DNA of 64,000 nt from NCBI GenBank assembly GCA_041481385.1, contig JBGPBW010000001.1, positions 1,531 to 65,530 on the forward strand, given 5' to 3'. Under the pieces are notes generated by a model. That model saw only the letters and a list, made by a program, of their open reading frames with translations. It did no database searches and was not told where the DNA came from. Source of the DNA: Puia sp. (GTDB lineage: Bacteria; Bacteroidota; Bacteroidia; Chitinophagales; Chitinophagaceae). Made by a program: the position numbers and the translations under genes. Shown here piece after piece: positions 2,358 through 52,712 of the stretch. Within the stretch, counting starts at the first letter, position 1, and every line of letters starts with the position of its first letter.

Positions 2358-2372
2358 TCCAATTATGAATTA

Positions 2373-4316: not shown

Positions 4317-4351
4317 GACTAAGGTCCCTGCCGGATATTAGACAGGGATGA

Positions 4352-4666: not shown

Positions 4667-4667
4667 A

Positions 4668-22569: not shown

Positions 22570-22673
22570 ATAGTTGGTTTTGAATGGATAATAAAATTAT
22601 TATTCTTTGGCTGTCCGGTGAATTTTTATTTGACAAAAATGGAAGTTTTCGTAAATTCAATAAATTGCCAGCC

Positions 22674-23555
22674 ATGTCAAATCAGAAAACGTTTACGAAG
22701 ACCGAGATAGCACCCCTGGCCAGCCTGGATGAATGGGAAGAAGACGTCTTGAAAAGATATCCTGAACAAGAACCCGTCTCCAAGGCAAAAGAAGCATACC
22801 GGAACTACGAAGAGCCTGCCCGCGACACCGTTCGTGAATTCTACAGGTTGAACCATACATACCAGACCAATGAATTCGTACAATCTAAAAGACATGAGTT
22901 TCTGCAATTCAGCAAAAAGGAAATGCCCGTTTGGGACGCATTCCAATTCCTGAATCAACTGGTAGACGATTCAGATCCGGATACTGACCTGGATCAGTTT
23001 CAACACCTGCTGCAGACGGCTGAAGCGATCCGGGCAGACGGCCATCCGGACTGGATGGTACTTGTCGGCCTGATGCATGATATGGGAAAAGTGCTCTGCC
23101 TGTTTGGAGAACCCCAGTGGGCCGTGGTCGGAGATACCTTCCCGGTTGGCTGCGCACATTCTGATAAGATTGTTTACCCGGAATTCTTTGCCTATAACCC
23201 GGATAGTACAAATCCTGCACTGAATTCAATACTTGGCGTGTACACACAAAATTGTGGATTGCGAAATGTAAACATGTCCTGGGGTCATGATGAATACGTG
23301 TACCAGATGATGAAGAACTCATTGCCTGAACCCGGCTTATATATGCTTCGTTATCATTCCTTTTATGCCTGGCACCGGGAAGGGGCTTATGAATACCTGC
23401 TCGACGATCATGACCGGGAAATGCTCAAATGGGTAAAATTGTTTAACCCCTATGATCTCTATTCAAAAAATCCGGTGGTGCCGGACTGGAACAAAATCAA
23501 GCCCTATTACGAAGCACTTGTGAATAAATACCTTCCTTCTACCCTTAAATTTTAA
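22674..23555 (+). CDS. miox: myo-Inositol oxygenase (MIOX family, diiron HD-like)
   Basis: DDSDPD, QHLLQTAE, HDMGK, VVGDTFPVGC, SWGHDEY, RYHSFY and DLYSK, which carry the MIOX diiron ligands. Likely start ATG 22674. Confidence 0.93.
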   Translation: MSNQKTFTKTEIAPLASLDEWEEDVLKRYPEQEPVSKAKEAYRNYEEPARDTVREFYRLNHTYQTNEFVQSKRHEFLQFSKKEMPVWDAFQFLNQLVDDSDPDTDLDQFQHLLQTAEAIRADGHPDWMVLVGLMHDMGKVLCLFGEPQWAVVGDTFPVGCAHSDKIVYPEFFAYNPDSTNPALNSILGVYTQNCGLRNVNMSWGHDEYVYQMMKNSLPEPGLYMLRYHSFYAWHREGAYEYLLDDHDREMLKWVKLFNPYDLYSKNPVVPDWNKIKPYYEALVNKYLPSTLKF

Positions 23556-23590
23556 TCTGCTCACCGAAAAGAAACCGGAGAACCATCCCC

Positions 23591-25219
23591 GTGCATACAT
23601 TACAGCGAGCGGACTACATTGTTTTTTTTGTCTATTTTATAGTTGTATCTGCATACGGTTACTATGTATATCATAAGAAAAAATCGACCGTTTCGGATTC
23701 AAAGGATTTTTTCCTCGCGGAAGGCTCACTAACCTGGTGGGCCATTGGCGCTTCACTGATCGCTTCCAATATTTCCGCAGAACATTTTATCGGTATGTCG
23801 GGTTCCGGTTATGCCCTGGGCCTCGCCATATCAACTTACGAATGGATGTCCGCAGCCACCCTGATAATTGTAGCAGTATTTATACTGCCTATCTATCTGC
23901 GGAATAAAATTGTTACCATGCCCCAGTTCCTGACACGGCGTTATAGTGAACTGGTTGGAACCGTGATGGCTGTTATTTGGCTGCTTGCCTATGTTTTTGT
24001 GAACCTTACATCAATCATTTACCTGGGTGCCCTCGCTATTACTTCCATCTCAGATATTTCTTTTGGTTGGAGTGTAGCCGGACTCGCCATATTCGCCGTT
24101 ATTGTAACCCTTGGCGGCATGAAAGTGATCGGGTATACAGATGTTATTCAGGTGCTGGTGCTGATCGTCGGTGGACTGGTTACGACTTATCTGGCACTCA
24201 CATTACTTTCTGAACATTTTGGATTCGGAACCAATTTGCTGAAGGGATTGTCCATCCTGCGAAAGGAAGCCCCGGAACATTTTCATATGATCTTCCACAA
24301 AGGCGATCCGTACTATAAGGATCTTCCGGGTACCTCTGTTATTGTCGGCGGCATGTTGATTAATAATCTGGCATACTGGGGATGCAATCAATATATTATT
24401 CAACGGGCGCTCGGTGCCAACCTGAAGACTGCTCGTAACGGGATTCTTTTCGCTGGATTTTTGAAGCTGATCGTACCGGTAATCGTTGTACTTCCCGGCA
24501 TAACCATGTTTGTTCTGCACAAAAACGGAATGTTTCAGCATGAAATGATGTCGGATGGGATTATAAAACCAGATCATGCTTATCCCACATTGATGAACCT
24601 GTTACCGCCCGGGCTCAAAGGTGTTGCTTTTGCTGCACTTACGGCGGCCGTTGTTGCCTCTCTTGCAGGAAAGGCAAATAGCATATCAACAATCTTTTCT
24701 CTTGACATATATAAAAAATTTTTCAATAAAAATGCAACGGAAAAACAGCTGGTCGGTATCGGGAAATGGGTGGTAATTCTGGCCATGGGCATTGCTGCCC
24801 TGATTGCGCCGTCATTAAAAACCCTGGATCAGGCGTATCAGTTTATCCAGGAATATGTAGGATTCATTCAGCCGGGTGTCTTGGCAATATTCCTGCTCGG
24901 ATTTTTCTGGAAGCGTACTACAGCAGCCGCAGCATTGACCGGAACGCTGCTGACGATCCCTGTTTCAGCAATCCTTAAATTTCTTCCAGTATGGACCAAC
25001 GGTGCTTTTCCGGATTTTCCGTTCCTCGACCGCATGTCCATCACTTTTCTTATCATAGTGGCCATGATGATCGGGGTGAGCTTATCCAAACCATCTGCCG
25101 ATCAGGCTTCACACACTATCGTTGTAAATAAAAAAGATTTTATCGTGTCACCTTCATTTATTCTGGGATCGGTGATAATTGTCGGCATCCTCGCCGGGTT
25201 GTACACGGTTTTCTGGTAA
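23591..25219 (+). CDS. Sodium:solute symporter (SSS/SGLT-like), probable myo-inositol transporter
   Basis: SLIASNISAEHFIGMSGSG and YWGCNQYIIQRALGA with many TM helices; 35 bp downstream of miox on the same strand. Confidence 0.9.
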   Translation: MHTLQRADYIVFFVYFIVVSAYGYYVYHKKKSTVSDSKDFFLAEGSLTWWAIGASLIASNISAEHFIGMSGSGYALGLAISTYEWMSAATLIIVAVFILPIYLRNKIVTMPQFLTRRYSELVGTVMAVIWLLAYVFVNLTSIIYLGALAITSISDISFGWSVAGLAIFAVIVTLGGMKVIGYTDVIQVLVLIVGGLVTTYLALTLLSEHFGFGTNLLKGLSILRKEAPEHFHMIFHKGDPYYKDLPGTSVIVGGMLINNLAYWGCNQYIIQRALGANLKTARNGILFAGFLKLIVPVIVVLPGITMFVLHKNGMFQHEMMSDGIIKPDHAYPTLMNLLPPGLKGVAFAALTAAVVASLAGKANSISTIFSLDIYKKFFNKNATEKQLVGIGKWVVILAMGIAALIAPSLKTLDQAYQFIQEYVGFIQPGVLAIFLLGFFWKRTTAAAALTGTLLTIPVSAILKFLPVWTNGAFPDFPFLDRMSITFLIIVAMMIGVSLSKPSADQASHTIVVNKKDFIVSPSFILGSVIIVGILAGLYTVFW

Positions 25220-26475: not shown

Positions 26476-26546
26476 TGTAGTAGTGATGACGTAGCCGCGT
26501 CCCGAAAAGGAAATCTATTTGTTCTCCTGATGTAGTACAGAAGTAG
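26476..26546 (+). promoter_or_regulatory. Operator array 1: two TGATGTAG-N3-TGATGTAG-type pairs, 52 bp apart
   Basis: TGTAGTAG-tga-TGACGTAG at 26476 and TGATGTAG-tac-AGAAGTAG at 26528; -7-like TACATTTA at 26577. Confidence 0.75.
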
Positions 26547-26621
26547 TTTAAAAAATGAAAATTGTTTTAAAGATCCTACATTTATAAAGCAAAAAACGAT
26601 TGCTCAGTTTAAATTCATTTT

Positions 26622-27509
26622 ATGACTTCACGTAGAGTTTTTATACAGTCAGCCTCTGCTCTGACAGCCGCAGTTTTTGTAAAAGGTCCTCTGCAGGTTT
26701 TGAGTGCCTCCCCGGTTATCGGCCTTCAATTATACACCGTTCGGGATGCTATGTCCAAGGATCCGATGGGAACACTGGCTAAAGTGGCCCAGATCGGTTA
26801 TAATTCAATTGAAAATGCAACCTATACCGGATCGGAAAAATTTTATGGCATGGATGCGGCGACGTACAAAAAAGTGCTGGCTGAAAATGGTTTAGTTGCC
26901 AACAGTGGTCATTACAGGCTGGGAGAAGAAATGGAGAAGGGCGCTCCGGTGCAGGGAACCATTTTGCACGACTGGCAGAAAGCAGTTGACGACGCGTCAA
27001 CCGTTGGATTAAAATACATGGTATGTGCGTATTTGTCAGGCCAGGAACGTGGCGACCTGGATCACTATAAAAAGCTGGCTGAAATATTTAATAAAGCGGC
27101 AGAGACCTGCAAAAAATCGGGAATCCAGTTCTGTTATCATAACCACGACTTTGAATTTCAAAATCAGGATGGCGTATTCCCCTACGACATACTGCTGGAA
27201 AAAACAGACAAGGATCTGGTGAAAATGGAAGTTGACCTGTACTGGATCAAAAAAGCTGGTCAGGATCCGTTGGCCCTGTTTCAGAAACATCCCGGAAGAT
27301 TTCCACTCTGGCATGTAAAAGACATGTCCAAGGAAGCGGATCAGAGTTTTGCAGAAGTCGGTAGCGGTATCATCGATTTTAAAACCATCTTCCAGCATAA
27401 GGACCAGGCAGGCATGAAGTTCTTTTTCGTCGAACAGGATAAATGCCCGGGCTCACCATTCGACAGCATTACGCATAGTTACAATTTTATTAAGACCAAT
27501 TTGGTTTAA
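26622..27509 (+). CDS. Tat-exported sugar phosphate isomerase/epimerase (AP_endonuc_2, xylose-isomerase-like TIM barrel), paralog 1
   Basis: SRRVF Tat motif; YHNHDFEF, MEVDLYW, WHVKD and FVEQD metal-site motifs. Confidence 0.9.
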   Translation: MTSRRVFIQSASALTAAVFVKGPLQVLSASPVIGLQLYTVRDAMSKDPMGTLAKVAQIGYNSIENATYTGSEKFYGMDAATYKKVLAENGLVANSGHYRLGEEMEKGAPVQGTILHDWQKAVDDASTVGLKYMVCAYLSGQERGDLDHYKKLAEIFNKAAETCKKSGIQFCYHNHDFEFQNQDGVFPYDILLEKTDKDLVKMEVDLYWIKKAGQDPLALFQKHPGRFPLWHVKDMSKEADQSFAEVGSGIIDFKTIFQHKDQAGMKFFFVEQDKCPGSPFDSITHSYNFIKTNLV

Positions 27510-27634
27510 TTGTTAATTGTCAATTGTTAATTGTTAACGCAGATATACAGCTTGCTGATTAATAGTTGAGCTTAAATATTCAGCTGACAAATAATATAGC
27601 TGATAGAACTAAAGGCGTTAACAATTGTCAATTA
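27508..27634. repeat. AATTGTY heptamer array plus its inverted copy, bracketing a convergent intergenic region
   Basis: aattgtt aattgtc aattgtt aattgtt aacgc (27508-27540) and gcgttaacaattgtcaatt (27615-27633); each begins in a stop codon. Confidence 0.75.
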
Positions 27635-30556
27635 GTTCTTCTGTTTTTGTTCATGAGAGGAAAAATTCAGCAGGAAATCAAAAAGGTTGGTTTCTGTGTT
27701 TATTTTTAATTTTTTCCTCAGTCTGTACCTGCCGATTTCCACACCCCGTACTGAAATACTTTCAAGCTGTGCGATTTCCTTGCTGGACAAATTCATCCGC
27801 AGATAAGCACAAAGTTTCAGTTCGTGCGGACTCAGTGCCGGGTAGACGTTCTTGATGTTGCTGAGAAAATCGCTATGTACGTGGTCGAAATGCTGGGCAA
27901 ATTGTTCCCAGTCCTTGTCCATTTTATTTTCCTCGCTGAGAATACGCATAATCTTTTTGAATTCGTCAGGCGCTGCATGACCATTTGCATTTTTCTTTAT
28001 GCGACTCATTTCTTCCTTTATGTTACCAAGTAATTCGCCTTTTTGAACAAGATGCATGGCGGTGGATGCCAGCTCGGTGTTTTTAAAGGCGATATCCGCC
28101 TCCAGTTTTTCGTTTCTGAGTTTTACAATTTCTTTTTCCGATTTATCCAACTCCAGTTCATGCAAGTAAGTGAGGCGCTTTTGCTCCTCCTCATATTTCT
28201 GCTGCTGTTCCAGAAATATTTGTTTCTGCCAGCGGAATATCAGATAAATCATGCAACCGATGATCAGGGCATAGGTCAGGTATGCCCAGTTGGTCTGATA
28301 CCAGGGTGGCATAACGACAAACCGGTAAATTTTAATGGAGGATTCATTACCCAGATTGTTTTTCGCCTTTACCTGAAATTCATAACTACCTGGTGGAAGG
28401 TTTGTATATTCCTTCTCGGATTTTTTCGACCATGCTGACCAGGATGGATCAAATCCACTTAGTAAATAACTGTACTGGACATTAGATTGCTGGGCATATA
28501 CCGGAGCAGAATATTCAAAGTGCAGGGAGTTCATATTGCTACCTACACTGGGAACAGCCGACGCCGGCTGGATCAGGGGCTGGTTGATCTGATCAAAATA
28601 TCCGCCGAACAGGAGACTGTCGCCATGCCCAAATGCTTTTACGGATCGGATCATCACATCGAGCCCATACCGGTTCTTTTTGTACAACTCGTAGTTAATA
28701 TGATAGAATCCTTTTTCGCAGCCTACCAGGATATTGGCGTTATTATACGGATCCACATTTTCCCAACCACTCACCATTTTTCCGTTCAATTCAGGGAAAT
28801 AAATGATTTTGGGTGTTTTCCAGGAAAAATCAATCACGCCCAGATTTTTGTCTTCTACAAACCATATATTGCCAGACGCATCTTCTTTCAGGTAGCGGAT
28901 ATTACGGATTCCAAAAAACTCTTTGAAATAATCCGATAACTCAAAGCGGTCTGTTTTCGAATCATACTCGTAAATACCTTTTTCAGTAGCCACAACAATC
29001 CGGTTCAATACTTTAAATAACTGATTCTTTACGGAAGAGGGCAGGCCCTGTTCTTCCTTATATAAACGGGCGGATGCAGCTTTGCCGGGATGCAGGTCTA
29101 TTTTATAGACGCCCCTGTACGGATGTCCAACCCAGATGGTATTATTATTATCAATTGCCACAAACTGGGAGTACTCGCTGAATCCCGGAATATTTCCTTT
29201 GGAAACGAACCGGTTATTTTCCCATTCCAATAAATCCAGGCCCGATTCATTTCCAGCGAGAACAAGCTTGGAAGGAAGCACATTGTAAAAAGGAATAAAA
29301 CAGTGATACTCCACCCCTGAATTCAAAGGCAGGGGTTGACCTGCATGTAATGCATATACCCCATCATGATGGCCCAGCAACAACTCCCCATTCATTTTGG
29401 CCAGGCACCAGGAAGACCCCTTAGTATAAGGAAGGGGTGTAAAGTCGCCGTCCACGAAACTGAGATCTGTCTTTCCTTTTAGGGGTACGGTATAGAATCC
29501 ATTTGAAGTACCCACATAAAGCGCATCCTGGTAAATCAGGGAGGTATATCCTTTGCCTTCATTTAGCTTTTCCGGATAAATATGTTTGATCGCGTTATTA
29601 TATGCGATGAAATCAATGCCATCGTCAAGCCCAAGCCACAAATTGTTGTCCTTATCCAGAAAAAGGGTCAGTATATTATTAAGTTGTAATCCTTCCTTTC
29701 GGGATAGATTCTGGATCACTTCACCTTTTTTATTGATCACATAACAACCATTCAGGTTGGTGCCTACCGCAATCCAGTCATGTGTTATGGGGATCGCTGT
29801 CAGAATGCGCTGGTTTTTTAAAGGATTCATTCCGGCAAAACGGAAAGGGGTCAGTTTGTCCCTATTCAATATGTAAAAACCAGATGTGATTGTGGTCAGA
29901 AAACAACTGTCGGTGCCGATTGAAAACAGCGAGGATACAATATAACCGCGGGGAAGCGGACTCTGATCCAGATAACTGGTCCACAATCCGTTATTGAACT
30001 TCATCAGGCCGGTTTTCACATCCTGGGCAATCAGGAAGTTGTTCCCTGTACCCAAAAATGTCCACTCACTGGGTGCTGGATAAACTGTTATGGAATAGCC
30101 ATTGTACTGAAATATTTTCTCTTTGGATCGGAAAAAAACGTCATTGCCCAGACAGACGATATTCCAGATTTCCTTAAACGAATAATCTTTTTTGGGCAAC
30201 AGAAATTTGAGGGACGTGAAACTCAGTTTACCATTGTGGTCAGGAGAAAAATAGCCGAAATCATCCTGTCCGCCTGCATAAATCCGGTTGTCCTTGCCCA
30301 TAAGGATGGAACGGACGATGGATTTATTAGGAAGGGAATACAGTTTCCATGAGGAACCATCAAAACTCAGCAATCCTTCCAGGTTGGCAAAATATATAAC
30401 ACCGTTCTGGTCTTCAACAATGCCCCTGTTTTCCGTCCCCGCCCCGTAATTGTTATTAGAGTAATTGATGATATCGGGTATGCCAATGGGATTTTGCGCT
30501 TTTACCAAAACTGCGCAGCAGACCAGGAAGATAATGGGCATCCGCTTCATGTGCAA
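27632..30556 (-). CDS. Membrane-anchored one-component regulator: periplasmic Reg_prop propeller, Y_Y_Y, TM, coiled coil and LuxR-type HTH
   Basis: Signal peptide; propeller repeats; KEYTNLPPGSYEFQVKA (Y_Y_Y); PPWYQTNWAY plus TM; C-terminal LSPHELKLCAYLRMNLSSKEIA...RYRLRKKL. No kinase or receiver domain. Confidence 0.88.
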   Translation of the reverse strand: MHMKRMPIIFLVCCAVLVKAQNPIGIPDIINYSNNNYGAGTENRGIVEDQNGVIYFANLEGLLSFDGSSWKLYSLPNKSIVRSILMGKDNRIYAGGQDDFGYFSPDHNGKLSFTSLKFLLPKKDYSFKEIWNIVCLGNDVFFRSKEKIFQYNGYSITVYPAPSEWTFLGTGNNFLIAQDVKTGLMKFNNGLWTSYLDQSPLPRGYIVSSLFSIGTDSCFLTTITSGFYILNRDKLTPFRFAGMNPLKNQRILTAIPITHDWIAVGTNLNGCYVINKKGEVIQNLSRKEGLQLNNILTLFLDKDNNLWLGLDDGIDFIAYNNAIKHIYPEKLNEGKGYTSLIYQDALYVGTSNGFYTVPLKGKTDLSFVDGDFTPLPYTKGSSWCLAKMNGELLLGHHDGVYALHAGQPLPLNSGVEYHCFIPFYNVLPSKLVLAGNESGLDLLEWENNRFVSKGNIPGFSEYSQFVAIDNNNTIWVGHPYRGVYKIDLHPGKAASARLYKEEQGLPSSVKNQLFKVLNRIVVATEKGIYEYDSKTDRFELSDYFKEFFGIRNIRYLKEDASGNIWFVEDKNLGVIDFSWKTPKIIYFPELNGKMVSGWENVDPYNNANILVGCEKGFYHINYELYKKNRYGLDVMIRSVKAFGHGDSLLFGGYFDQINQPLIQPASAVPSVGSNMNSLHFEYSAPVYAQQSNVQYSYLLSGFDPSWSAWSKKSEKEYTNLPPGSYEFQVKAKNNLGNESSIKIYRFVVMPPWYQTNWAYLTYALIIGCMIYLIFRWQKQIFLEQQQKYEEEQKRLTYLHELELDKSEKEIVKLRNEKLEADIAFKNTELASTAMHLVQKGELLGNIKEEMSRIKKNANGHAAPDEFKKIMRILSEENKMDKDWEQFAQHFDHVHSDFLSNIKNVYPALSPHELKLCAYLRMNLSSKEIAQLESISVRGVEIGRYRLRKKLKINTETNLFDFLLNFSSHEQKQKN

Positions 30557-30653
30557 TCAATCTAAACCAAAAATAAGGGTAATACCCGTCAAAAATGCCA
30601 GTACGGACCATGGGGATGCTGAGCAGTCATTTTCCCCGTTTAGAAATTTTTCG

Positions 30654-30724
30654 TGATGTAGTGATGATGTAGCCTCTTTTGGCAGTTATCGTTTATTTTT
30701 TATGCTGATGTAGTATTGAAGTGG
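30654..30724 (+). promoter_or_regulatory. Operator array 2 in the regulator/PD40-protein divergent promoter
   Basis: TGATGTAG-tga-TGATGTAG at 30654 and TGATGTAG-tat-TGAAGTGG at 30706 (52 bp offset); -7-like TAATTTCA at 30756. Confidence 0.8.
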
Positions 30725-30801
30725 CAGGAAAATGTATCTTCCCTGTATTCGAATTTAATTTCACCATCCACGATTTTATTCACTATTATCAATCAATTTC
30801 C

Positions 30802-32304
30802 ATGAAGCAGCTGCTTGCCCTGGCCGGAGTCCTTTTCTCAGTTGTTCTGTATGGTCAAAATCCTGTTGGAATTTTTGAGGACCATGCAGATGTTGGTACC
30901 AATGTTAAACCGGGTTCTGCAACCTTTGTTCCCCAAACGGGTCAGTACATCATCTCCGGAGCCGGTTACAATGTTTGGGCTGATCATGATGAGTTTCAGT
31001 TTGTATGGAAAAAAGTGAAGGGTGATTTCATTTTATCGGCGCGGGCCGAGTTTCTGGGAAACTGGGTAGGCTATCACCGCAAAGTGGGTATTATGGCAAG
31101 GAAAACCCTGGATGGTAATTCTGCCCATGTCAATACCGTTGAACATGGAGACGGACTCACCTCCCTTCAGTTCCGAAGGACGGCCGGAGCGCAAACGGAG
31201 GAGATCAAAGCAAAAATCACCAAGGCTAACATTATTGAGTTGGAACGACGCGGCAATCTTTATATAATGCGGGCCGCTGTTTGTGGTGAGCCCTTTATAT
31301 CCGACACGATCAATAATATTGATCTGGGTGAAGAAGTGTATCTGGGTCTTTTTGTGGGTTCTCACAACTCGGATATTGTTGAAACGGGCGTGTTCAGCAA
31401 TGTCCGGCTTACCGTTCCATTTAAAGGCATATCTGACCAAACGACAGACATGACCCTTGGTAGTAATCTTGAAATTTTGGAAGTGGCTTCCGGCAAAAAG
31501 GATGTCATTTATACGGTGCCTTATTCCATTCAGGCGCCCAACTGGAGTCCTGTCGGAAATTTTCTCGTGTTTAACGACTACAAGGGCCTGATTTATCGGT
31601 TTGATCTGGATGCAAAATCAGTTTCCCCGATAAGTACAGGAACCATCACCAACAATAACAACGATCACGTGCTTTCTTTCGATGGAAACAGGCTGGGTCT
31701 GAGTAGCAACGTCAAAAGTCTGGGCGGATCCATCATTTACACAGTGCCTGTTACCGGGGGCGTTCCGAAACAGGTTACACCCAAAGGACCATCTTATCTG
31801 CATGGATGGTCACCCGATGGAAATACACTTGTATTCTGCGGCGAACGAAACGGTGAATTTGATGTCTATAAAATTCCGTCAGCAGGCGGACCGGAAACAC
31901 GTCTCACGAATACCAAAGGTTTGGATGATGGTCCCGAATATACTCCGGACGGGAAATATATTTATTTCAACTCCGTACGATCCGGGTCGATGCAGATCTG
32001 GCGAATGAAACCCGATGGGAGCGAACAGGAACAGGTAACCAACGACGATTTCAACAACTGGTTCGCTCATATTTCTCCTGATGGCAAATGGATAGTTTCT
32101 ATCTCTTTCCTCAAAGAAGAAGTGCAGCCAGGAATACATCCCCCATATAAACATGTGTACATCCGGTTAATGCCTTTCAGTGGTGGACCGGCTAAAGTGA
32201 TCGCTTATTTCTACGGTGGTCAGGGAAGCATTAATACACCTTCCTGGTCGCCCGACAGTAAACGGGTTGCCTATGTGAGCAATTCAGTAATAAATGGAAA
32301 TTAG
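30802..32304 (+). CDS. Periplasmic ConA-like domain plus PD40 (TolB-like) beta-propeller protein, paralog 1
   Basis: Signal peptide from ATG 30802; WSPDG, YTPDG and ISPDG repeats; N-terminal lectin-like sandwich. Confidence 0.82.
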   Translation: MKQLLALAGVLFSVVLYGQNPVGIFEDHADVGTNVKPGSATFVPQTGQYIISGAGYNVWADHDEFQFVWKKVKGDFILSARAEFLGNWVGYHRKVGIMARKTLDGNSAHVNTVEHGDGLTSLQFRRTAGAQTEEIKAKITKANIIELERRGNLYIMRAAVCGEPFISDTINNIDLGEEVYLGLFVGSHNSDIVETGVFSNVRLTVPFKGISDQTTDMTLGSNLEILEVASGKKDVIYTVPYSIQAPNWSPVGNFLVFNDYKGLIYRFDLDAKSVSPISTGTITNNNNDHVLSFDGNRLGLSSNVKSLGGSIIYTVPVTGGVPKQVTPKGPSYLHGWSPDGNTLVFCGERNGEFDVYKIPSAGGPETRLTNTKGLDDGPEYTPDGKYIYFNSVRSGSMQIWRMKPDGSEQEQVTNDDFNNWFAHISPDGKWIVSISFLKEEVQPGIHPPYKHVYIRLMPFSGGPAKVIAYFYGGQGSINTPSWSPDSKRVAYVSNSVINGN

Positions 32305-32339
32305 CAAGCGGAAATAGACTCATTCTTTAAATTCATATA

Positions 32340-33191
32340 ATGAAATCAAGACGGGACTTCATAAGAGAAACAGCACTTGCCGGCACTGGTGGTTTACTCC
32401 TATCCGGATTCATGCAAAATAAAAACTTAATCCCACAGCTTAAACAGGTAGGCGTACAATTGTATTCTGTAAGAAAGGAAATGCTTGGCGATCCCAGCGG
32501 CACGCTGATCAAGCTGGGAAAAATTGGTTACCAGGAAATTGAATCAGCCCAAAGTGATAAAGGCAATTATTATGGACTGACGCCGAAGGAAATAAAGAAA
32601 ATCATGAAAGACCTGGGTATGCACCTTCGCAGCGGTCATACTCATATTGACAAAAACTGGCAGCGTTCCATAGATGAGGCAGCAGAAGCAGGCCAGGAAT
32701 ACATCATCTGTTCCGTGCTGCCTTTTCCGGGCCAAACGATTGAGAACTATCAGAAAAGTGCCGATATGTTTTCTCAAGCCGGTGAACAGTGCAAAAAAAG
32801 CGGATTGTTATTTGGATACCACAACCATGAATCCGAATTTGAATCGGTAGATGGCCAGGTATTGTATGATGTATTACTGAATCGGGTACATCCCGGTCTG
32901 GTTCATATGGAGATGGACCTCGGATGGGTTATCGCAGCCGGTAAAAATCCGCTGGATTATTTTTCAAAATATCCCGGACGTTTTCCACTGTGGCACCTGA
33001 AGGATATGAATGTTGCTGAAAAGAAAAGTGTGGAATTTGGTAAAGGTTCGGTGGATATCACTACACTACTGCAACACCGCGCACAGGCAGGCATGAAATA
33101 TTATTTTGTTGAACAGGAAGAATATGAAGTAAACGCTTTCGACAGCCTGGATTATGATTATAACTGGCTGGTTAAGAACTATAAATCGTGA
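32340..33191 (+). CDS. Tat-exported sugar phosphate isomerase/epimerase TIM barrel, paralog 2
   Basis: SRRDF Tat motif; YHNHESEF, MEMDLGW, WHLKD and FVEQE. Confidence 0.9.
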   Translation: MKSRRDFIRETALAGTGGLLLSGFMQNKNLIPQLKQVGVQLYSVRKEMLGDPSGTLIKLGKIGYQEIESAQSDKGNYYGLTPKEIKKIMKDLGMHLRSGHTHIDKNWQRSIDEAAEAGQEYIICSVLPFPGQTIENYQKSADMFSQAGEQCKKSGLLFGYHNHESEFESVDGQVLYDVLLNRVHPGLVHMEMDLGWVIAAGKNPLDYFSKYPGRFPLWHLKDMNVAEKKSVEFGKGSVDITTLLQHRAQAGMKYYFVEQEEYEVNAFDSLDYDYNWLVKNYKS

Positions 33192-33234
33192 AGCCTGTTT
33201 TTTAACAAGCCTGAGAAAATCAAAAATGAATTTG

Positions 33235-33264
33235 AAGTGCTCCTTGAATGGGGCATTTTGTTTT
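33235..33264 (+). terminator. Intrinsic terminator after TIM-barrel paralog 2
   Basis: aagtgctcc-ttgaat-ggggcattt stem followed by tgtttt. Confidence 0.55.
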
Positions 33265-33320
33265 ATTCGAAAAGCATAAAATGCACTGGACAATTCCCGT
33301 TGGGCGGCTGGCCTTACGCA

Positions 33321-33391
33321 TGATGTATTAATGAAGTATCCTTTCAGGCTGATTCACCGGATATTGAGTAACTGATGTGGTATTGATGTAG
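33321..33391 (+). promoter_or_regulatory. Operator array 3
   Basis: TGATGTAT-taa-TGAAGTAT at 33321 and TGATGTGG-tat-TGATGTAG at 33373 (52 bp offset). Confidence 0.78.
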
Positions 33392-33422
33392 TAAAAAATA
33401 TTGGAAAAGTGGAAGGGCAGAA

Positions 33423-33430
33423 TAGATTTG
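33423..33430 (+). promoter_or_regulatory. -7 box TAGATTTG
   Basis: Exact TAnnTTTG starting 32 bp after the end of operator array 3. Confidence 0.65.
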
Positions 33431-33447: not shown

Positions 33448-34986
33448 ATGAAATGTATTCCAGTTCTGCTACTTATCTTTTTTTCGCTTTCCTGTTTTTC
33501 CCAAACCCCAATCGGTGTTTTTGAAAACCAACAAGATATCGGTTATGTAAAACATGCAGGCTCCTCAATATATGACGCAGCCAGTCAATCGTACATCATA
33601 AAAGGTTCCGGCGCAAACATCTGGTTTAATGAGGACCAGTTCCATTTTGCGTTTAAGAAAATATCGGGGAATTTTTTACTCACTGCAAACTTTGAATTTA
33701 CGGGAGATACTGCTGGGGCTATAGGACACAGGAAAATCGGATGGATGGTTCGGGAAACTGCGGACGCGGATGCCGTGAGTATGAATGGCTGTGTACATAT
33801 CGACGGATTGATTGCATTGCAATGGAGGGAAATGAAGGGCGCATTTATGCAGGATCCGCAAGGCGAGATTTTTTCTGCCAAAAGGGGTTTGCAGACCATG
33901 CAGCTGGAACGCATGGGTAAAAAGCTGATTATGCGAATGGCCAATTGGGGCGAGCCGCTGCAATTCGTGGGTGAACATGATCTTATCGATTTGACGGATA
34001 CGGTTCTGGCGGGAATTTATATTTGCTCGCACGATTCAAATACCCTGGCTACTGCGCGGGTCTGGAATGTGCGCATCGATCACCCGGTCGAAAATCCCTA
34101 TCAGCCAAATCCACTGTTGGCAAAACCGCCACCCACAGCTGTGATGGGCAGCCGACTGGAGCTTGTGGATATAACGGACGGAAACCGGAAGATTATCTAC
34201 GAATCAAAAGGTCGTTTTGAAGCACCAAACTGGATGCCGGATGGGAAAAAATTACTATTCAATGATCACGGTTCCCTGTATACGATTCCCGTCGAAGGAG
34301 GAACTCCGGAGAAATTAAATACCGGATCGGCTTCAAAAATCAATAATGACCACGGTATATCATTCGACGGAAAAATGCTGGCCATCAGTAATTCCAGAGA
34401 GGGTATGCCGGGAGGAGGTTCTTCTGTTTATATCCTTCCGCTCAACGGTGGTGAGCCGCGACTGCTCACGGAGCAGACGCCGTCTTACTGGCATGGTTGG
34501 AATCCCAATAATAAGGAAGTATGTTTTGTTGCCCAGCGCGGTACGAGGATTTACAATCTCTACAAGCAGTCCATAAACGGAGGAAGCGAAATACAACTCA
34601 CGTTTAACACAAAGGGCCATGTGGACGGTCCGGAATATTCTCCTGATGGAAAATATATTTATTACAATGCCAATCCTACAGGCACGATGCAGATCTGGCG
34701 GATGAAACCTGATGGTTCAGGAAAGGAGCAGATCACTTTTGATCAGTACCATAACTGGTTTCCGCATATTTCTCCCGACGGAAAATGGATCGTATACATT
34801 TCATTTCCGCCGGATATTGATCCCAATGCGCATCCAACATATCAGCGGGTCATGCTTCGGCTGATCCCGGCAGCCGGGGGTGCTCCAAAGGTTTTGGCTT
34901 ATTTGTTTGGTGGACAGGGTACGTTGAACGCCCCGTCCTGGTCGCCCGATAATAAATGGGTTGCATTTGTAAGTAATTCGGAATAA
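33448..34986 (+). CDS. Periplasmic ConA-like domain plus PD40 (TolB-like) beta-propeller protein, paralog 2
   Basis: Signal peptide from ATG 33448; WMPDG, YSPDG and ISPDG repeats; shares SMQIWRMKPDGS/TMQIWRMKPDGS with paralog 1. Confidence 0.82.
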   Translation: MKCIPVLLLIFFSLSCFSQTPIGVFENQQDIGYVKHAGSSIYDAASQSYIIKGSGANIWFNEDQFHFAFKKISGNFLLTANFEFTGDTAGAIGHRKIGWMVRETADADAVSMNGCVHIDGLIALQWREMKGAFMQDPQGEIFSAKRGLQTMQLERMGKKLIMRMANWGEPLQFVGEHDLIDLTDTVLAGIYICSHDSNTLATARVWNVRIDHPVENPYQPNPLLAKPPPTAVMGSRLELVDITDGNRKIIYESKGRFEAPNWMPDGKKLLFNDHGSLYTIPVEGGTPEKLNTGSASKINNDHGISFDGKMLAISNSREGMPGGGSSVYILPLNGGEPRLLTEQTPSYWHGWNPNNKEVCFVAQRGTRIYNLYKQSINGGSEIQLTFNTKGHVDGPEYSPDGKYIYYNANPTGTMQIWRMKPDGSGKEQITFDQYHNWFPHISPDGKWIVYISFPPDIDPNAHPTYQRVMLRLIPAAGGAPKVLAYLFGGQGTLNAPSWSPDNKWVAFVSNSE

Positions 34987-35028
34987 AAAGTTCAGCTCTT
35001 GGTGGTTTACGGTTAAGCAATGAGAACA

Positions 35029-35067
35029 GGCCCCGCTCCCTGTTCGCAGGGAGGGGCCATTCTTTTT
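35029..35067 (+). terminator. Strong hairpin/terminator upstream of susC
   Basis: ggcccc-gc-tccctg-TTCG-caggga-ggggcc followed by attcttttt. Confidence 0.65.
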
Positions 35068-35132
35068 AAATCTGTACTGCGTAAAATCGGACGTCAAAAT
35101 AAAGTTCCTTTTAATCATTTCTAAAATAATAA

Positions 35133-38100
35133 TTGCTTATGCCAAAGAAAAAAACCGGGCTACAAAAGATGTGTTGCATTCTTTTGGTGATTCTCCTGTT
35201 TTCATGCACCGCATTTGCCCAAAGAACAGTTACCGGGAAAGTAATGAACAAAACAAATCAGCAGCCCGTTGCCGGAGCAACCGTGCTGGTTAGGGGAACT
35301 GTGATTGCTACTCAAACGGATACTTCAGGTTTTTTTAGCATCGTGGTTCCCAAAAATAATACCGACCTGGAAATTACATCGGTCGGATTTGAGAACATGG
35401 TGCTGTCCGTTGCGGGAAAAACGACAACCGGAGAAATCCTGCTCACGATAACGGCCGGTAATCTGAACGAGGTTTTTGTAACCGGATATTCTTCTCAGAA
35501 AAAAAAGGATATCACCGGTGCGATTTCAATTGTGAATGTAGCCGACATGAAACAAACACCATCCGGAAGTACAGAGGCATTGTTGCAGGGACAGGCTTCA
35601 GGTGTAACGGTTAACACGACTGGTGCGCCGGGCGGGGCTTCTGTAGTGAATATCCGGGGCATTACCTCATCTGGTAATTCTGCTCCCCTGATTCTGATCG
35701 ATGGTGTGCCCGGAAGTATGCATGATATCAGTTCAAGTGATATCCAGTCTGTCCAGGTTTTAAAAGATGCAGGTGGGTCGGCCATTTACGGTGTACGCGG
35801 ATCCAATGGAATCATTGTAATTACAACTAAAAAAGGCACGCCGGGCAGAGTAAGGATTACGTACGACGGGTTTGTTGGAAGTCAACAACCATTAAGCAAA
35901 AGCTGGTCTTTGGCTACTCCTACCCAAACAGGAACTGCCAAATGGGCTCAGTATTTTAATGATGGTCTTACTGCCAGTGATCCGCAATATGGAAGTGGGC
36001 CAACACCCGTGGTGCCCTACTATATCACACCAACCGGTGCTCCCCAGGGAGCCCCAAATACCAGTGCAGCTGACTATAATCTCTACTCAAATCATATTAC
36101 CCTCGCCGACCAAAACGGCAATAACTGGTTCAACGATATTTTCAAGCCCGCACTGATCATGGATCATAATCTGTCTGTAAGCGGAGGTTCTGGTAAATCG
36201 TCCTTTTTCTTTGCTTTTAACTACTTGGATCAGCAGGGCACGCTGATCGAAACCAGTTTAAGACGTTATTCCGTACGCGTCAATACAAATTTTAGTTTTG
36301 CCGATGATCATATTCATGTCGGGGAAAATGCTTATGTTTTTTACAAAACCAATCCCGGATACCTGAACGCGCCCGGAGTGAATTCGACGAATTCCATCAA
36401 CGCTGCTTATCAGCTTCCCAATATCATTCCGGTTTATGATATTGTAGGCAATTATGCGGGTGGCATTTCTCAGGGCCTGGGCAACGCATCCAACGCAGTG
36501 GCAATCCAGCAACGCCAGGCAAATAATCAGAGCCGGGACTACCAGGTTATCGGAAATGTTTTTGCCGATGTGGATTTCCTGAAACATTTTACCTTCCACA
36601 CAAGCGCAGGCGGAACATTTGATAATTACTATTTTGACGGGTTTGCCACCACACCTTATGAAAACGCTGAAAATAATCATGCAGCCAACCTGTATACGGA
36701 AACCTGGGGATCGAATTCCAGCCTGATTTGGACCAACACTTTGAATTACAACAATACAATTGGTAAAAATAATTTTACCATTCTTGGTGGTACCGAATAT
36801 CTGTATAATACCGGCCAGGGAGTGAACGCAACCAGAGGCAATTATTATATCACCGATTCCAGTAACTTAACCGTATCGCCAAATCTCTGGACCCTGAACT
36901 TCGGACAGGCTTCTACCCAAACCAACAATTCAAGTATCATCGGAGATAACGGCATAAGGACTCCATATCAGCTGGCCATATTTTCAGTTTTCGGCAGACT
37001 GGACTATAATTATGACCAGAAATATTATCTGAGTGCCACACTTCGAAGTGATAATTCTTCTGTGTTCGTTCCTGACCAGCGCAACGGTATTTTCCCTTCC
37101 GTTTCCGCAGGCTGGATGCTTTCTGAAGAATCTTTCATGCGGGATGTAAGCTGGTTAAATTTGCTTAAGATACGTGGCAGCTGGGGGAAACTGGGTTCGA
37201 TCAGTAATATCAATCCCACCAATGCCTATACTTTATATGGGCAACAGATCAACCAGTCTTACTATGATATCAATGGTACCAGTAATAGTCCAACCGCAGG
37301 TCTTTATGTTAGCCAATATGGAAACCCCAATACGACCTGGGAACAGGATATCATAACTGATGCGGGATTTGACGCGAGTATTATAAAAAACAAACTGGAT
37401 TTCAGTTTTGACTGGTATAAGAAACTGATCAGTGGCCTGCTCTTTGTTCCCGCAGTTCCGGGAACGAATGGAGGAACGCTGGACCCCTTCCTGAATTCAG
37501 GTAACGTTCAGAATACGGGTATTGATGCTGCACTTACCTACCACGGAAGGATCCAGAATGATTTGAGGTTTGATATCACCGCAACTTTTACATCATACAA
37601 CAATAAAGTAGTAAGCCTTCCTGCAGGGACCTTATATATTAACCAGCCCATTGGTGCGCAAACTGTAACATCCAGGATACAACCCGGTGAGCCCCTTGGT
37701 GAATTTTTTGGCTACCAGGTAATTGGTTTATTCCAGAGTTATACTGACGTGAAAGGTTCTGCTGCGCAGCAGGACGCTGCTCCGGGCCGGTTCAAGTATG
37801 CTGATGTAAATAAGGATGGGGTGATCAACGGTGACGACAGAACCTTCTTTGGTAATCCCAACCCGAAATATTCAGCAGGTCTGAATATCTCGGTGAATTA
37901 TAAAAACTTTGATTTCTACACATTCTTTTATACACAGGTTGGAAACCAGATTATAAATAATGTAAAATCTTCAACCGATTTCCCGCAGGGATTTGGAAAC
38001 CAGATCAGCACCAATGTGGCGCTCAATTCAGCCAGGTTGATTAATGACAACGGCCAACCAACCAACATCAATGATCCAACTGCGCATGTAGCCAATACCG

Positions 38101-38423
38101 GAACAAATGTTCCAATGCTTGAACAAAGTGCCAATTTCAGCAATTCACAGGCATTTAATTCCTATACTATGGAAAGCGGATCATTTCTGAGGTGCAGAAA
38201 CCTGACGATCGGGTACACCATCGTTTCCAACACACTCAAGCGTATGCATTTCGACAATTTCCGGGTCTATGTTCAGGCGCTGAATCTGTTTACCGTTACC
38301 AATTATTCAGGTCTGGATCCGGAGTTGAATCCGGGTACCAGTACGGTGTTTGGATACGATAACGGCGTATACCCGAATAATCAAAAGACATATAATGTGG
38401 GTGTCAGTATCACAGTACATTAA
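35133..38423 (+). CDS. susC: SusC/RagA-family TonB-dependent transporter
   Basis: N-terminal CarboxypepD_reg-like domain, plug DITGAISIV...[30 protein letters not shown] and C-terminal [12 protein letters not shown]. Confidence 0.95.
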   Translation: [1096 protein letters not shown]

Positions 38424-38447
38424 TTTATTTTAAAAAATTAGAATAAT

Positions 38448-40283
38448 ATGAAAAAATTATTAAAATGGATATTACCTGTTGCTGCGGTACTCCTGGTCGT
38501 AATTATTTACGCGTGTAATAAAAAACTGGACCTGCAACCACAGGGATCCCTGCTTGCTTCGAATGTCAATAACAATTCCGGCGTTCAGGGATTACTAATC
38601 GGAGCCTATGTATTGCTGTCTGGTGAAAATGTGCCGGGACAGAATCTCGGAAACGGTAGCGCCGCCTCCAATTATGTATATGGAAGTGAAGCAGCAGACG
38701 ATTCCTATAAGGGTTCCTCACCTTCCGACCAGCCCGATGCGATTCCCTTATTGACCTGGTCGTTGTCGCAGGCCAGTACTACTAATTATCTCGATCAGAG
38801 ATGGGTAGTCCTTTACACCGGAATTCAAAGATCTAATGATGTAATCCGCACACTTCGACTGTCCACAGGTATTTCTCCGGCAGATACGACTGAATATGTA
38901 GCTGAAGCCAGGTTTCTTCGTGGTTTCTATCATTTTGAAGGGAAAAAGGCATGGAATAATTTTCCATATGTGGATGAAAACATTTCTTACGTAAATGGAA
39001 ATCTGAATGTTCCCAATATCGACGGAAGCGGGGCTTACATCAATATCTGGCCGCAGATTGTGGGCGATTTACAATACGCTGTAGCGAATCTGCCCACTAC
39101 GCAACCCAATATTGGCAGGGTGAATAAATGGGCAGCCATGGCTTTTCTGGCAAAGGCCTATATGTACCAACATGATTACGCCAGTGCGAAACCCTTGCTG
39201 GACTCGGTCATTCACAATGGCACCACTTCAGATGGAACACCTTATGGCCTTAACCCCCGTTTTCAGAGTAATTTTAACCCTGCGGAAAAGAATAGCCGTG
39301 AAAGTGTTTTTGCCTGCCAGACTTCTGTAAACGATGGGTCTGCCATTGCAACGAATGGTGGGAACGGGAATACGGGTGATGAGCTCAATCATCCTTATAA
39401 CCACGGTCCCGGCTGCTGCGGTTTTAATAATCCCTCATGGAACCTGGTGCAGGCTTACAAAACCGATGCTAATGGACTTCCTTTTTTGGACGGGAGTTAT
39501 AATACCGGACCCCTGGTAAGTTATCCTCCCAATCCCTGGACGGGCAATGTGGATCCGCGTCTTGACTGGACTTCCGGAAGACCGGGCAAACCCTGGTTTG
39601 ACTGGGGAACCATTGACAGTACCTGGATTCGCGACGTGCCGAATGATGGATTATTTGTTACCATGAAGAATAACTATGCGAAGAGTCAACAGGGTTCTTT
39701 TTCATCAACAGAAACCGTATTCTGGGGTGCAGCTGAAGTAGCTGCGAGCAATGTTCCCCTATGCCGTTTTCCCGACGTCTTGCTCTGGGATGCAGAATGT
39801 GAGGCACAAATCGGAAGTCTTGACCAGGCTGAAACCTATGTAAATATGGTTCGTACCCGGGCTGGCAATCCGCAGGGATTTGTTTATTTAAATGCCAGTT
39901 ACGACGGCGCTACCGGAATGTATTCCCCTCAGACTACTCCGGCAGACAAATACAAAGTAAGTCCTTATCCGCTGGGTGCATTTAGTGCCATGGGACAGAC
40001 AAATGCTTTAACGGCAATCCAATTTGAAAGAAGACTGGAACTGGCAATGGAAGGCCAGCGTTTCTTCGATCTGGCGAGATATGACAACGGCACAGGTTTG
40101 ATGGCAACTACGCTGAATAATTATGTTTCAGTTGAAAAAAACAGGAGTTCATTTTATTATGTGAACAGTGCAGCCGTATTTACAAAAGGGGTCAATGAAT
40201 ATTTTGCCATACCCCAGAAAGAATTGGACGCTGAAAATTCGACAGGCACGGTGGTGCTGAAACAAAATCCGGGATACCAGTAA
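38448..40283 (+). CDS. susD: SusD/RagB-family surface lipoprotein
   Basis: Lipobox YAC; EARFLRGFYHF, ERRLELAMEGQRFFDLAR and C-terminal QNPGY; directly after susC. Confidence 0.95.
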   Translation: MKKLLKWILPVAAVLLVVIIYACNKKLDLQPQGSLLASNVNNNSGVQGLLIGAYVLLSGENVPGQNLGNGSAASNYVYGSEAADDSYKGSSPSDQPDAIPLLTWSLSQASTTNYLDQRWVVLYTGIQRSNDVIRTLRLSTGISPADTTEYVAEARFLRGFYHFEGKKAWNNFPYVDENISYVNGNLNVPNIDGSGAYINIWPQIVGDLQYAVANLPTTQPNIGRVNKWAAMAFLAKAYMYQHDYASAKPLLDSVIHNGTTSDGTPYGLNPRFQSNFNPAEKNSRESVFACQTSVNDGSAIATNGGNGNTGDELNHPYNHGPGCCGFNNPSWNLVQAYKTDANGLPFLDGSYNTGPLVSYPPNPWTGNVDPRLDWTSGRPGKPWFDWGTIDSTWIRDVPNDGLFVTMKNNYAKSQQGSFSSTETVFWGAAEVAASNVPLCRFPDVLLWDAECEAQIGSLDQAETYVNMVRTRAGNPQGFVYLNASYDGATGMYSPQTTPADKYKVSPYPLGAFSAMGQTNALTAIQFERRLELAMEGQRFFDLARYDNGTGLMATTLNNYVSVEKNRSSFYYVNSAAVFTKGVNEYFAIPQKELDAENSTGTVVLKQNPGYQ

Positions 40284-40364: not shown

Positions 40365-40390
40365 GAAAGGCCCGTTTTTACGGGCTTTTC
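40365..40390. terminator. Bidirectional terminator between susD and the anti-sigma gene
   Basis: gaaaggcccgt-tttt-acgggcttttc between convergent genes. Confidence 0.7.
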
Positions 40391-49403: not shown

Positions 49404-49451
49404 CGTATCCAAAAATTTGTATAAATTTCCATGATTTCCCGGAGATGAAGC

Positions 49452-49468
49452 TCCCCCCAAATGGGGGA
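49452..49468. promoter_or_regulatory. Palindrome TCCCCC-N5-GGGGGA in the RR/HK divergent region
   Basis: Perfect 6-bp arms between the two start codons. Confidence 0.35.
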
Positions 49469-52512: not shown

Positions 52513-52712
52513 GCTTATTTCAGGAATTTAACAACGGGCTCCTCAAAATCATCTTTTTGAGGTTTGGTGGTCTTTTGAGGCAAAAAGGCCTTCCTGAACC
52601 CGCTGAAAGGCGTTATTTTGAACAAATCAGCTGTTTATTGTAAAAAAAACAGGGTAATCAAGTTTGGTACTAAACTATTGTGGTATCTTGTCGGCTATTA
52701 AATTGTATTGGA

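Follow-up and report, generated by a model that had tools for sequence, protein, structure and literature searches.

Paired direct repeats at three promoters of Puia sp. as predicted operators of a BguR-type one-component regulator

INTRODUCTION

Which DNA sites are recognized by a membrane-spanning regulator that has neither a kinase nor a receiver, and which genes would it control through them? The question is raised by a locus of Puia sp. (Chitinophagaceae; assembly GCA_041481385.1, contig JBGPBW010000001.1), where three promoters carry the same arrangement of direct repeats and one of them faces the gene of such a regulator. The DNA analysed, referred to below as the window, is the 64,000-nucleotide (nt) stretch at positions 1,531 to 65,530 of the contig, forward strand, and coordinates are counted from its first letter.

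A sequence-only reading of the window had proposed that the regulator reads four phased half-sites upstream of the -33 region of each of the three promoters, and our comparison supports this proposal computationally. The evidence comes from 196 loci, from 79 of 96 arrays found without reference to genes, from a near-invariant DNA-recognition helix, from a TAnnTTT box kept at 30–32 nt from the repeats and from the joint loss of array and target gene. We conclude that the three arrays are quite probably the operators of the adjacent regulator, through which it would exert positive control over three transcription units. The regulator is a one-component protein of the type of BguR, the beta-glucan utilization regulator of Formosa agariphila (Bartosik et al., bioRxiv 10.64898/2026.01.10.698779).

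RESULTS

Three promoters share an array of paired direct repeats

The repeated unit is a half-site resembling TGAWGTAG. Two half-sites with a start-to-start period of 11 bp form a pair, and each array contains a distal and a proximal pair. In array 1, the distal pair TGTAGTAG-tga-TGACGTAG lies at 26476–26494 and the proximal pair TGATGTAG-tac-AGAAGTAG at 26528–26546. Array 2, which lies in the intergenic region shared with the divergent regulator gene, is composed of TGATGTAG-tga-TGATGTAG at 30654–30672 and TGATGTAG-tat-TGAAGTGG at 30706–30724, and array 3 of TGATGTAT-taa-TGAAGTAT at 33321–33339 and TGATGTGG-tat-TGATGTAG at 33373–33391. All six pairs are evident by direct reading and in pattern and position weight matrix (PWM) scans, and those of array 2 also by comparison with relatives. 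The 12 half-sites are all on the + strand, oriented toward the downstream gene, whose start codon is at 26622, 30802 or 33448 for arrays 1, 2 and 3, respectively. Direct reading thus confirms the two TGAWGTAG-type pairs and the 11-bp period that had been described ahead of these start codons, as well as the distance of 52 bp between pair starts in all three arrays.

The pairs are unique to these positions. When up to two mismatches are allowed, the pattern TGAWGTRG-N3-TGAWGTRG has six matches in 64 kb (0.39 expected), which are precisely the six pairs, and six matches were attained in none of 100 shuffled sequences. The proposed scan for such pairs with a partner at 52 bp, run on the 64-kb window, accordingly returns six pairs in three arrays and nothing else. 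With the PWM the six pairs score 20.2–25.8 bits and the next best site 14.7 bits. In a Monte Carlo comparison with 3000 mononucleotide shuffles, a mean of 0.13 pairs and no paired-pair array was found, versus six pairs and three arrays in the window. Each array has exactly four half-sites, with no tandem runs. Spacer and flanking sequences differ among the three arrays, which have only the boxes in common, and the arrays are therefore not simple duplicated promoters.

The consensus of Bacteroidota sigma-A promoters consists of TTTG at -33 and TAnnTTTG at -7. A -7-like box follows each array: TACATTTA at 26577–26584 (+), 31 bp past the last repeat base of array 1, TAATTTCA at 30756–30763 (+), 32 bp past array 2, and TAGATTTG at 33423–33430 (+), a perfect TAnnTTTG also 32 bp past its array. 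These distances agree with those originally reported, and the position of the box is kept in related loci, including relatives of array 1. The boxes lie 25–46 nt 5′ of the start codons, and the positions of the transcription start sites (TSSs) are predicted from sequence only. If transcription starts a few bases past the box, a proximal pair that ends 31–32 bp 5′ of it would have its half-sites centred at about -47 and -58. A scan for sigma-70 promoters, which is uninformative for Bacteroidota, gave 34 hits where 28 were expected.

The divergent gene encodes a one-component regulator

The regulator gene occupies 27632–30550 on the - strand and encodes 972 residues from an ATG at 30550 (or 30541, the start used in the call for P0001). 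The protein consists of a signal peptide, a double beta-propeller (Reg_prop), a Y_Y_Y domain, one transmembrane helix (approximately residues 755–775), a long helical linker and a C-terminal helix-turn-helix (HTH) of GerE type (approximately residues 905–960). The Y_Y_Y domain (PF07495) scores 54.9 bits over residues 687–747 and is directly followed by the hydrophobic stretch WAYLTYALIIGCMIYLIFRW, which begins a continuous helix spanning residues 754–854 in the structural model; the transmembrane assignment is based on this stretch and the modelled helix. The HTH displays the LuxR/GerE signature SKEIAQL..ISVRGVEIGRYRLRKKL. No HisKA, HATPase_c, receiver or AraC-type HTH domain was found in the regulator by Pfam and NCBIfam searches. 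The domain searches therefore agree with the earlier description of array 2 as lying in the divergent promoter of a membrane-spanning Reg_prop/Y_Y_Y/LuxR regulator that has no kinase or receiver.

The full-length AlphaFold model, computed with an alignment, has a mean pLDDT of 80.4. The best Foldseek matches to its periplasmic part are the periplasmic domains of BT4663 and BT3049 (4A2L and 3V9F; E 1e-35 to 4e-32, TM-score 0.74–0.77). For the C-terminal 222 residues, AlphaFold run on the single sequence gave a model that was discarded (pLDDT 59.6, with the HTH below 50), and a search of PDB sequences with the regulator C-terminus yielded no useful match.

The regulator gene has a -7 box of its own, TATTTTTG at 30568–30575 (-), some 18–25 nt 5′ of its start codon, which is kept as TAyrTTTG in relatives at 77–87% identity. 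The distal pair of array 2 is about 80 bp away from this box, and strong autoregulation is therefore not expected in the window. In relatives with SusC-type target operons, the distal pair is just 40–50 bp from the regulator start codon and must therefore overlap the regulator's promoter, which makes autoregulation plausible in those loci. The same intergenic region contains a further element, CCCGTTTAGAAAT at 30634–30646, which abuts the distal pair of array 2 and reads AAATTTCTAAACGGG on the regulator's strand. Relatives at 63–87% identity keep it in their divergent intergenic region, and it is absent from arrays 1 and 3.

Arrays adjoin regulator homologs in related genomes

Regulator homologs at 42–87% identity were collected from 76 loci of reference genomes and metagenome-assembled genomes (MAGs), and 1.36 Mb was scanned with the half-site matrix. 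The proposed motif search beside orthologous regulators covered 196 loci in all, and the array is found to adjoin the homologs divergently across this set. In the 76 genome loci, 263 strong pairs are on the strand opposite the regulator gene, compared with 2 on the regulator's strand. The pairs occur at syntenic sites: the first lies 100–180 bp upstream of the regulator gene and is oriented away from it, and the other two lie ahead of the TIM-barrel gene located downstream of the regulator and ahead of the second unit, which is of PD40 or SusCD type. Even Chitinophaga species with a regulator no more than ~45% identical to that of the window have the divergent array. Cultivable relatives that carry arrays include Puia sp. 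P3 (NZ_CP192583, L076), Chitinophaga arvensicola DSM 3695 (L059) and C. polysaccharea (L048). In two loci (L030 and L026) the divergent target gene has been replaced, and no array is found there. A search of the 76 genome loci for paralogous regulators found none beyond the central gene.

The alignment of 129 unique arrays from the genome loci sharpens the definition of the operator candidate. Information content is 1.1–2.0 bits at nearly all box positions and 0.9–1.2 bits at the degenerate W; most spacer columns are below 0.45 bits. In 128 of the 129 arrays, the base after the first half-site in the proximal pair is T, indicating that the actual unit is TGAWGTAGT. A TAnnTTT box starts at an offset of 30–31 past the proximal pair in 95 of these arrays, and at an offset of 28–32 in 179 of 266 arrays when all loci are considered. 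The array alignment reveals no conserved -33 element in the stretch separating the proximal pair from the -7 box. Each pair is also flanked by a T-tract on its 5′ side and an A-tract on its 3′ side (positions -11 to -8 and +3 to +6), most strongly at the proximal pair; these tracts may be elements for bending or minor-groove contact.

A gene-blind search leads to the same regulators

Public metagenome contigs were also scanned for the DNA pattern without regard to genes, as a distal pair followed by a 20–40-nt gap and one proximal half-site, which gave at least 120 loci. Among the matches listed there are 96 clean arrays, 79 of which have a divergent regulator homolog within 400 bp. The homolog is elsewhere in the locus for four of the others, nine have <1.5 kb of upstream sequence, which is too short for a call, and four have none; two of these last four are of the TIM-gene promoter type. 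The regulators recovered in this way are 30–91% identical to the window protein.

About 24 of the at least 120 pattern loci were dropped because they contain no clean array; most are TGATGTAGTAn microsatellites, and a few have a regulator homolog. Long tandem runs of this kind occur in unrelated contigs (L079, L094, L098, L103, L113, L116, L126, L187 and others) as accidental matches to the pattern, and such microsatellites need filtering in motif-based regulon searches. We considered whether one locus of 30% guanine-plus-cytosine content (L144) might be a BguR locus from Flavobacteriia, and this was ruled out, its relatives being Chitinophagaceae (for example Ferruginibacter and Flavisolibacter). 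Every locus that could be assigned to a taxon belongs to the Chitinophagales, and the box is thus documented only within this order.

The distance between pairs falls into two classes

Among 238 unique arrays, the pair-to-pair distance is 42–45 bp in 24 and 50–56 bp in 198, and none of the 238 has a distance of 35–41 or 46–49 bp. The two classes correspond to approximately four and five helical turns. The larger class is centred on the spacing seen in the window, with 13 arrays at 51 bp, 70 at 52 bp, 57 at 53 bp, 35 at 54 bp and 19 at 55 bp. Apparent spacings of 31–34 bp are mostly microsatellite leftovers. Both classes are found within the lineage of L016, where two promoters have a distance of 53 bp and the TIM-gene promoter one of 42 bp, which indicates that a change of one whole turn is tolerated and a half turn apparently is not. 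At the TIM-gene promoter of L153 (array at ~4234, +), the pairs are 32 bp apart and the -7 box is 21 nt past the proximal pair, both approximately one turn shorter than usual.

Spacing also follows the type of target. Regulators with at least 55% identity to that of the window are associated with a PD40-type first gene and a spacing of 51–53 bp, and those at 40–55% identity with a SusC-first operon and a spacing of 53–56 bp. Two still more distant members, with ~33% identity (L196, 4058–7162, and L183, ~490–5480), have the same half-site at a spacing of 44 bp ahead of proteins secreted by the type IX secretion system (T9SS). Those of L196 contain CBM48/CBM20 domains, and L183 also encodes an SSF transporter. 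As judged from these loci, the predicted operator box extends well past SusCD-type loci.

The half-site and the recognition helix are conserved together

We compared the HTH regions of 89 regulators with no more than 66% overall identity to the window protein. The helices, SKEIAQL...ISVRGVEIxRYRLRKKL, are 91–98% conserved except at three variable positions, and the recognition helix is ~97% conserved; sensor segments of the same proteins are 33–60% conserved. The recognition helix hardly differs among PD40-type members, the SusC-GH16-type member L059, the GH3-linked member L097 and the 33%-identity member L183. The MAG DATJJD01 contains two members whose recognition helices are nearly identical and whose boxes are similar: L016 is PD40-type with a spacing of 53 bp, and L064 is SusC-type with a spacing of 55 bp and more degenerate boxes. 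These observations fit a model in which a constant half-site would be read by a constant HTH.

The earlier reading had envisaged that the repeats define a binding code for the regulator class. The half-site is no code specific to this regulator, being the same throughout the family members sampled in Chitinophagaceae. Apart from the regulator, the window encodes a single GerE protein, a response regulator at 48774–49460. Its HTH, including the recognition helix, is different (NETVKSHIKNIYAKL as compared with SVRGVEIGRYRLRKKL in the one-component regulator), and the two have no significant similarity.

Array-bearing transcription units

The first predicted target, downstream of array 1, is an exported xylose-isomerase-like TIM-barrel protein identified by domain search as AP_endonuc_2 (26622–27509, +). 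Its ortholog carries an array in relatives, with a spacing of 52 bp in close ones and 42 bp in the group at 60–66% identity. Array 2 precedes an operon at 30802–33191 (+) encoding a PD40/TolB-like beta-propeller protein (30802–32304) and a second TIM-barrel protein (32340–33191). A terminator-like hairpin followed by a T run (33233–33260, +) separates this operon from array 3. The third unit, at 33448–40283 (+), contains a PD40 paralog (33448–34986), a SusC-like TonB-dependent transporter (35133–38423) and a SusD-like protein (38448–40283), with a terminator-like hairpin after it at 40365–40390. The PWM scan finds no array ahead of SusC in the window; in some relatives an array lies immediately 5′ of the SusC ortholog. 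The first genes of units 2 and 3 are paralogs (PD40), as are target 1 and the second TIM-barrel of unit 2.

The domain search detects no glycoside hydrolase (GH) in the array-bearing units of the window. In the 66%-identity relative L016, the operon also includes a GH2-family enzyme, which makes a glycan or glycoside the likely substrate of the regulon, as far as gene content can indicate. The TIM-barrel targets match PDB entries of sugar phosphate isomerases/epimerases (8TCT, 8TCD and 8TCS; E 1e-28 to 4e-32). Proteins annotated in this way have been shown to act as periplasmic 3-keto-beta-glucoside lyases in a route that cleaves glycosides non-hydrolytically, and a membrane regulator with DUF6377 controls the gene cluster of this route (bioRxiv 10.1101/2024.03.25.586180). 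The possible link between the TIM-barrel targets and these lyases is through the sugar phosphate isomerase annotation only; a literature search with the codes 8TCD and 8TCT found nothing, and no Gfo/Idh/MocA oxidoreductase is encoded near the regulon in the window.

Neighbouring genes

Genes for MIOX (myo-inositol oxygenase) and a sodium:solute symporter lie just 5′ of the regulon, at 22584–25219, and have no array. Since the TIM-barrel targets weakly resemble IolE, a connection to the catabolism of cyclitols or sugar derivatives is possible. The NarL-type response regulator mentioned above (receiver-GerE, 48774–49460, -) forms a two-component pair with a divergently encoded kinase of Reg_prop/Y_Y_Y plus HisKA_3/HATPase_c composition (49522–52512, +). 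This pair combines the sensor and output families found in the one-component regulator and retains the phosphorelay. A small bacterial protein with an RNA recognition motif (RRM) domain is encoded beside it, at 52680–53039 (+).

DISCUSSION

Proposed mode of action

The arrangement of the sites suggests how the regulator could act. One GerE-type HTH would occupy each half-site of 8–9 bp, TGAWGTAG(T), and a regulator dimer would bind each pair, its two half-sites being 11 bp apart, head to tail and on one face of the helix. The other dimer would sit on the same face, four or five turns farther upstream, a distance of 52 bp in the window. With centres at about -47 and -58, the proximal half-sites would place the promoter-proximal dimer directly upstream of a weak -33 region, where it could recruit or stabilise RNA polymerase, and the distal dimer would in turn stabilise the proximal one. 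Ligand binding in the periplasm would be signalled via the transmembrane helix and coiled coil to the pair of HTHs without phosphorylation, switching on the TIM-barrel gene, the PD40 and second TIM-barrel genes, and the PD40, SusC and SusD genes. The regulator gene, with its own -7 box, is probably expressed independently. The long gap between pairs may mirror how much width two bulky periplasmic sensors take up when they are neighbours in the membrane.

Several points weigh against this assignment. The -7 boxes and start sites are predicted from consensus and conservation only, and no RNA run contains the window sequence, its matches being confined to DNA metagenomes of sediment and soil. HTH dimers of the LuxR/GerE type usually bind inverted repeats, and a head-to-tail arrangement is less typical. 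The GerE match of the regulator (PF00196) is 19.8 bits, below the Pfam gathering score of 23.5; homologs at 46–66% identity do pass the threshold (by precomputed PF00196 assignment, and with 26.8 bits for L097 and 27.1 bits for L144), and membership is very likely because their HTH residues are nearly identical to those of the window protein. The PWM used for scanning was derived from the window's own 12 half-sites, although by itself it cannot produce the observed biases in strand, position and spacing, and the scan of the source genome covered 64 kb. The same box also accompanies members that control different genes, including the two in one MAG (L016 and L064), so that the box alone is insufficient for regulator-to-promoter specificity.

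Alternative explanations

Three other explanations of the arrays were weighed. In one, the boxes are the operator of this regulator but repress the targets, or the distal pair serves mainly to autoregulate the divergent regulator gene. The placement of the boxes argues against repression: every box lies upstream of the -33 region, keeps a constant distance to the -7 box and does not overlap it, and the target promoters have no conserved -33 element, as is typical of activator-dependent promoters. BguR, which has the same architecture, is an activator. The precedent for the opposite sign is BT4124, a hybrid two-component system (HTCS) protein with predicted tandem half-sites that represses the genes of its polysaccharide utilization locus (PUL) when constitutively active (PMC13292587). 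Autoregulation by the distal pair would suit the overlap in the SusC-type relatives better than the ~80-bp separation from the regulator's -7 box in the window. We regard this explanation as improbable.

A still smaller probability attaches to the idea that the boxes serve another DNA-binding protein, either the NarL-type response regulator or a global regulator, and that the link to the one-component regulator is conserved synteny. Such a protein is at hand, since the receiver-GerE protein is encoded in the window beside a Reg_prop/Y_Y_Y/HisKA_3 kinase, and the pairing of regulator and box is drawn from sequence comparison. What nevertheless makes this explanation unlikely is that the array accompanies the regulator gene through different gene contexts, adjoining it whether the targets are PD40, SusC-GH16, GH3 or T9SS/CBM48 genes. 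The proportion of gene-blind arrays with a regulator within 400 bp also speaks against it, as do the co-variation of the box with the presence of the family's invariant recognition helix and the different HTH of the response regulator. Finally, the repeats might be non-regulatory and have arisen by chance, as remnants of promoter duplication or as microsatellite-like sequence. Paralogy among the targets (units 2 and 3; target 1 and the second gene of unit 2) makes promoter duplication conceivable, and TGATGTAGTAn microsatellites do exist in unrelated metagenome contigs. We consider the probability of this explanation negligible: no array appeared in 3000 shuffles, the boxes are conserved and the spacers and flanks are not, the window arrays stop at four half-sites with no tandem runs, and the arrays keep their position and strand, their spacing and their distance from the -7 box across regulators down to 30–45% identity. 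The assignment of the arrays as operators for positive control by the adjacent regulator is therefore preferred.

Relation to known regulators

The class of regulator had been called poorly characterised, a description that BguR has overtaken. BguR spans the membrane as a one-component protein with the same architecture, and its deletion abolishes growth on laminarin and the 70–110-fold induction of the PUL, which identifies it as an activator (bioRxiv 10.64898/2026.01.10.698779). A conserved motif is predicted between the BguR gene and the first structural gene; it is given as a logo (Fig. 3C of the preprint), and the text and supplement contain no motif sequence, repeat structure or spacing. 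Homologs of BguR were reported with beta-glucan PULs only, from 53 marine genomes. The window regulator shares with BguR the signal peptide, two propellers, Y_Y_Y domain, single transmembrane helix, helical linker and, very probably, GerE domain, and the lack of HisKA, HATPase and receiver domains. Its gene likewise adjoins a presumed target promoter, with a conserved motif between regulator and first structural gene, and its relatives at 40–50% identity adjoin SusC-SusD-PKD-PKD-GH16 or GH3 loci, tying the family to beta-glucan loci of the BguR type. The two differ in gene content and source. Regulators of the BguR type are associated with beta-glucan PULs (GH16, GH17, GH30, GH3, GH144 and others), and BguR comes from a marine member of the Flavobacteriia, whereas the regulon in the window consists of PD40, exported TIM-barrel and SusCD genes and comes from a soil or sediment member of the Chitinophagaceae. 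With no GH in its units, the window regulator is a member of this architectural family and, by context, not a beta-glucan regulator.

Operators used by SusR-like regulators and by HTCS in Bacteroides have been predicted as direct repeats at whole helical turns, with a spacing of 67 or 77 bp (6–7 turns) for SusR-like proteins and ~21 bp for HTCS, and the long SusR box gap was attributed to the width of adjacent membrane sensors (Ravcheev et al. 2013, PMC3878776). The SusR-like (DUF6377) proteins resemble the window regulator as membrane-spanning one-component proteins with a C-terminal HTH and no phosphorelay. The sensor of SusR, however, is not a Reg_prop/Y_Y_Y propeller, and SusR has two boxes whereas the window family has two pairs, 42–45 or 50–56 bp apart, the half-sites of a pair being 11 bp apart from start to start. 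Weak alignments link the cytoplasmic module of the window protein to the BT3442 family (E 2e-8) and to DUF6377 (E 0.055; 13.5 bits, below the cut-off of 36.7), and the relative P0197 has DUF6377 on record; this similarity suggests a related output module only. With the HTCS proteins BT4663 and BT3049, the regulator has the periplasmic sensor fold in common, but its GerE output is joined directly to the transmembrane helix, with no kinase, receiver or AraC-type HTH.

Activators on direct repeats are also known outside the Bacteroidota. MalT of E. coli is an activator with a LuxR-type HTH that binds asymmetric direct-repeat boxes upstream of activator-dependent promoters as a cooperative oligomer; it differs in being a soluble STAND ATPase, and the sequence and spacing of its boxes are unrelated. 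OmpR/PhoB and ToxR/CadC proteins bind head to tail on direct repeats of 10–11 bp next to the -35 region through a winged helix rather than a GerE domain, and have other sensors; ToxR and CadC are membrane-anchored one-component activators. The window regulator falls into a class already described, and the general style of its operator layout is likewise known. New are the explicit half-site, the 2 + 2 layout, the four- and five-turn classes, the fixed distance to the -7 box, the regulon of three promoters and the gene content free of GHs.

Implications

Conservation of both box and helix raises the question of how family members escape cross-talk. One conceivable answer, which we hold as doubtful, is that a single half-site (TGAWGTAG) and a single helix are used family-wide and that promoter choice comes from the spacing classes (42–45, 51–53 and 53–56 bp), from membrane proximity to the regulator's own gene, or from both. 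If this were true, a regulator inserted in the membrane beside its own gene would act on adjacent promoters only.

Membrane-spanning one-component regulators whose sensors resemble those of HTCS are numerous in Bacteroidota. The first genetic characterisation dates from 2026, and operator geometry has not yet been described for the class. The model proposed here, drawn from this locus and several hundred relatives, would permit sequence-based prediction of regulons for the family in Chitinophagaceae, and it provides a defined DNA fragment for studying how a periplasmic sugar sensor could drive a GerE HTH without phosphorylation. It also indicates that the family is not confined to beta-glucan PULs, since the genes under predicted control here encode PD40 propellers, exported TIM-barrel proteins and a SusCD pair.

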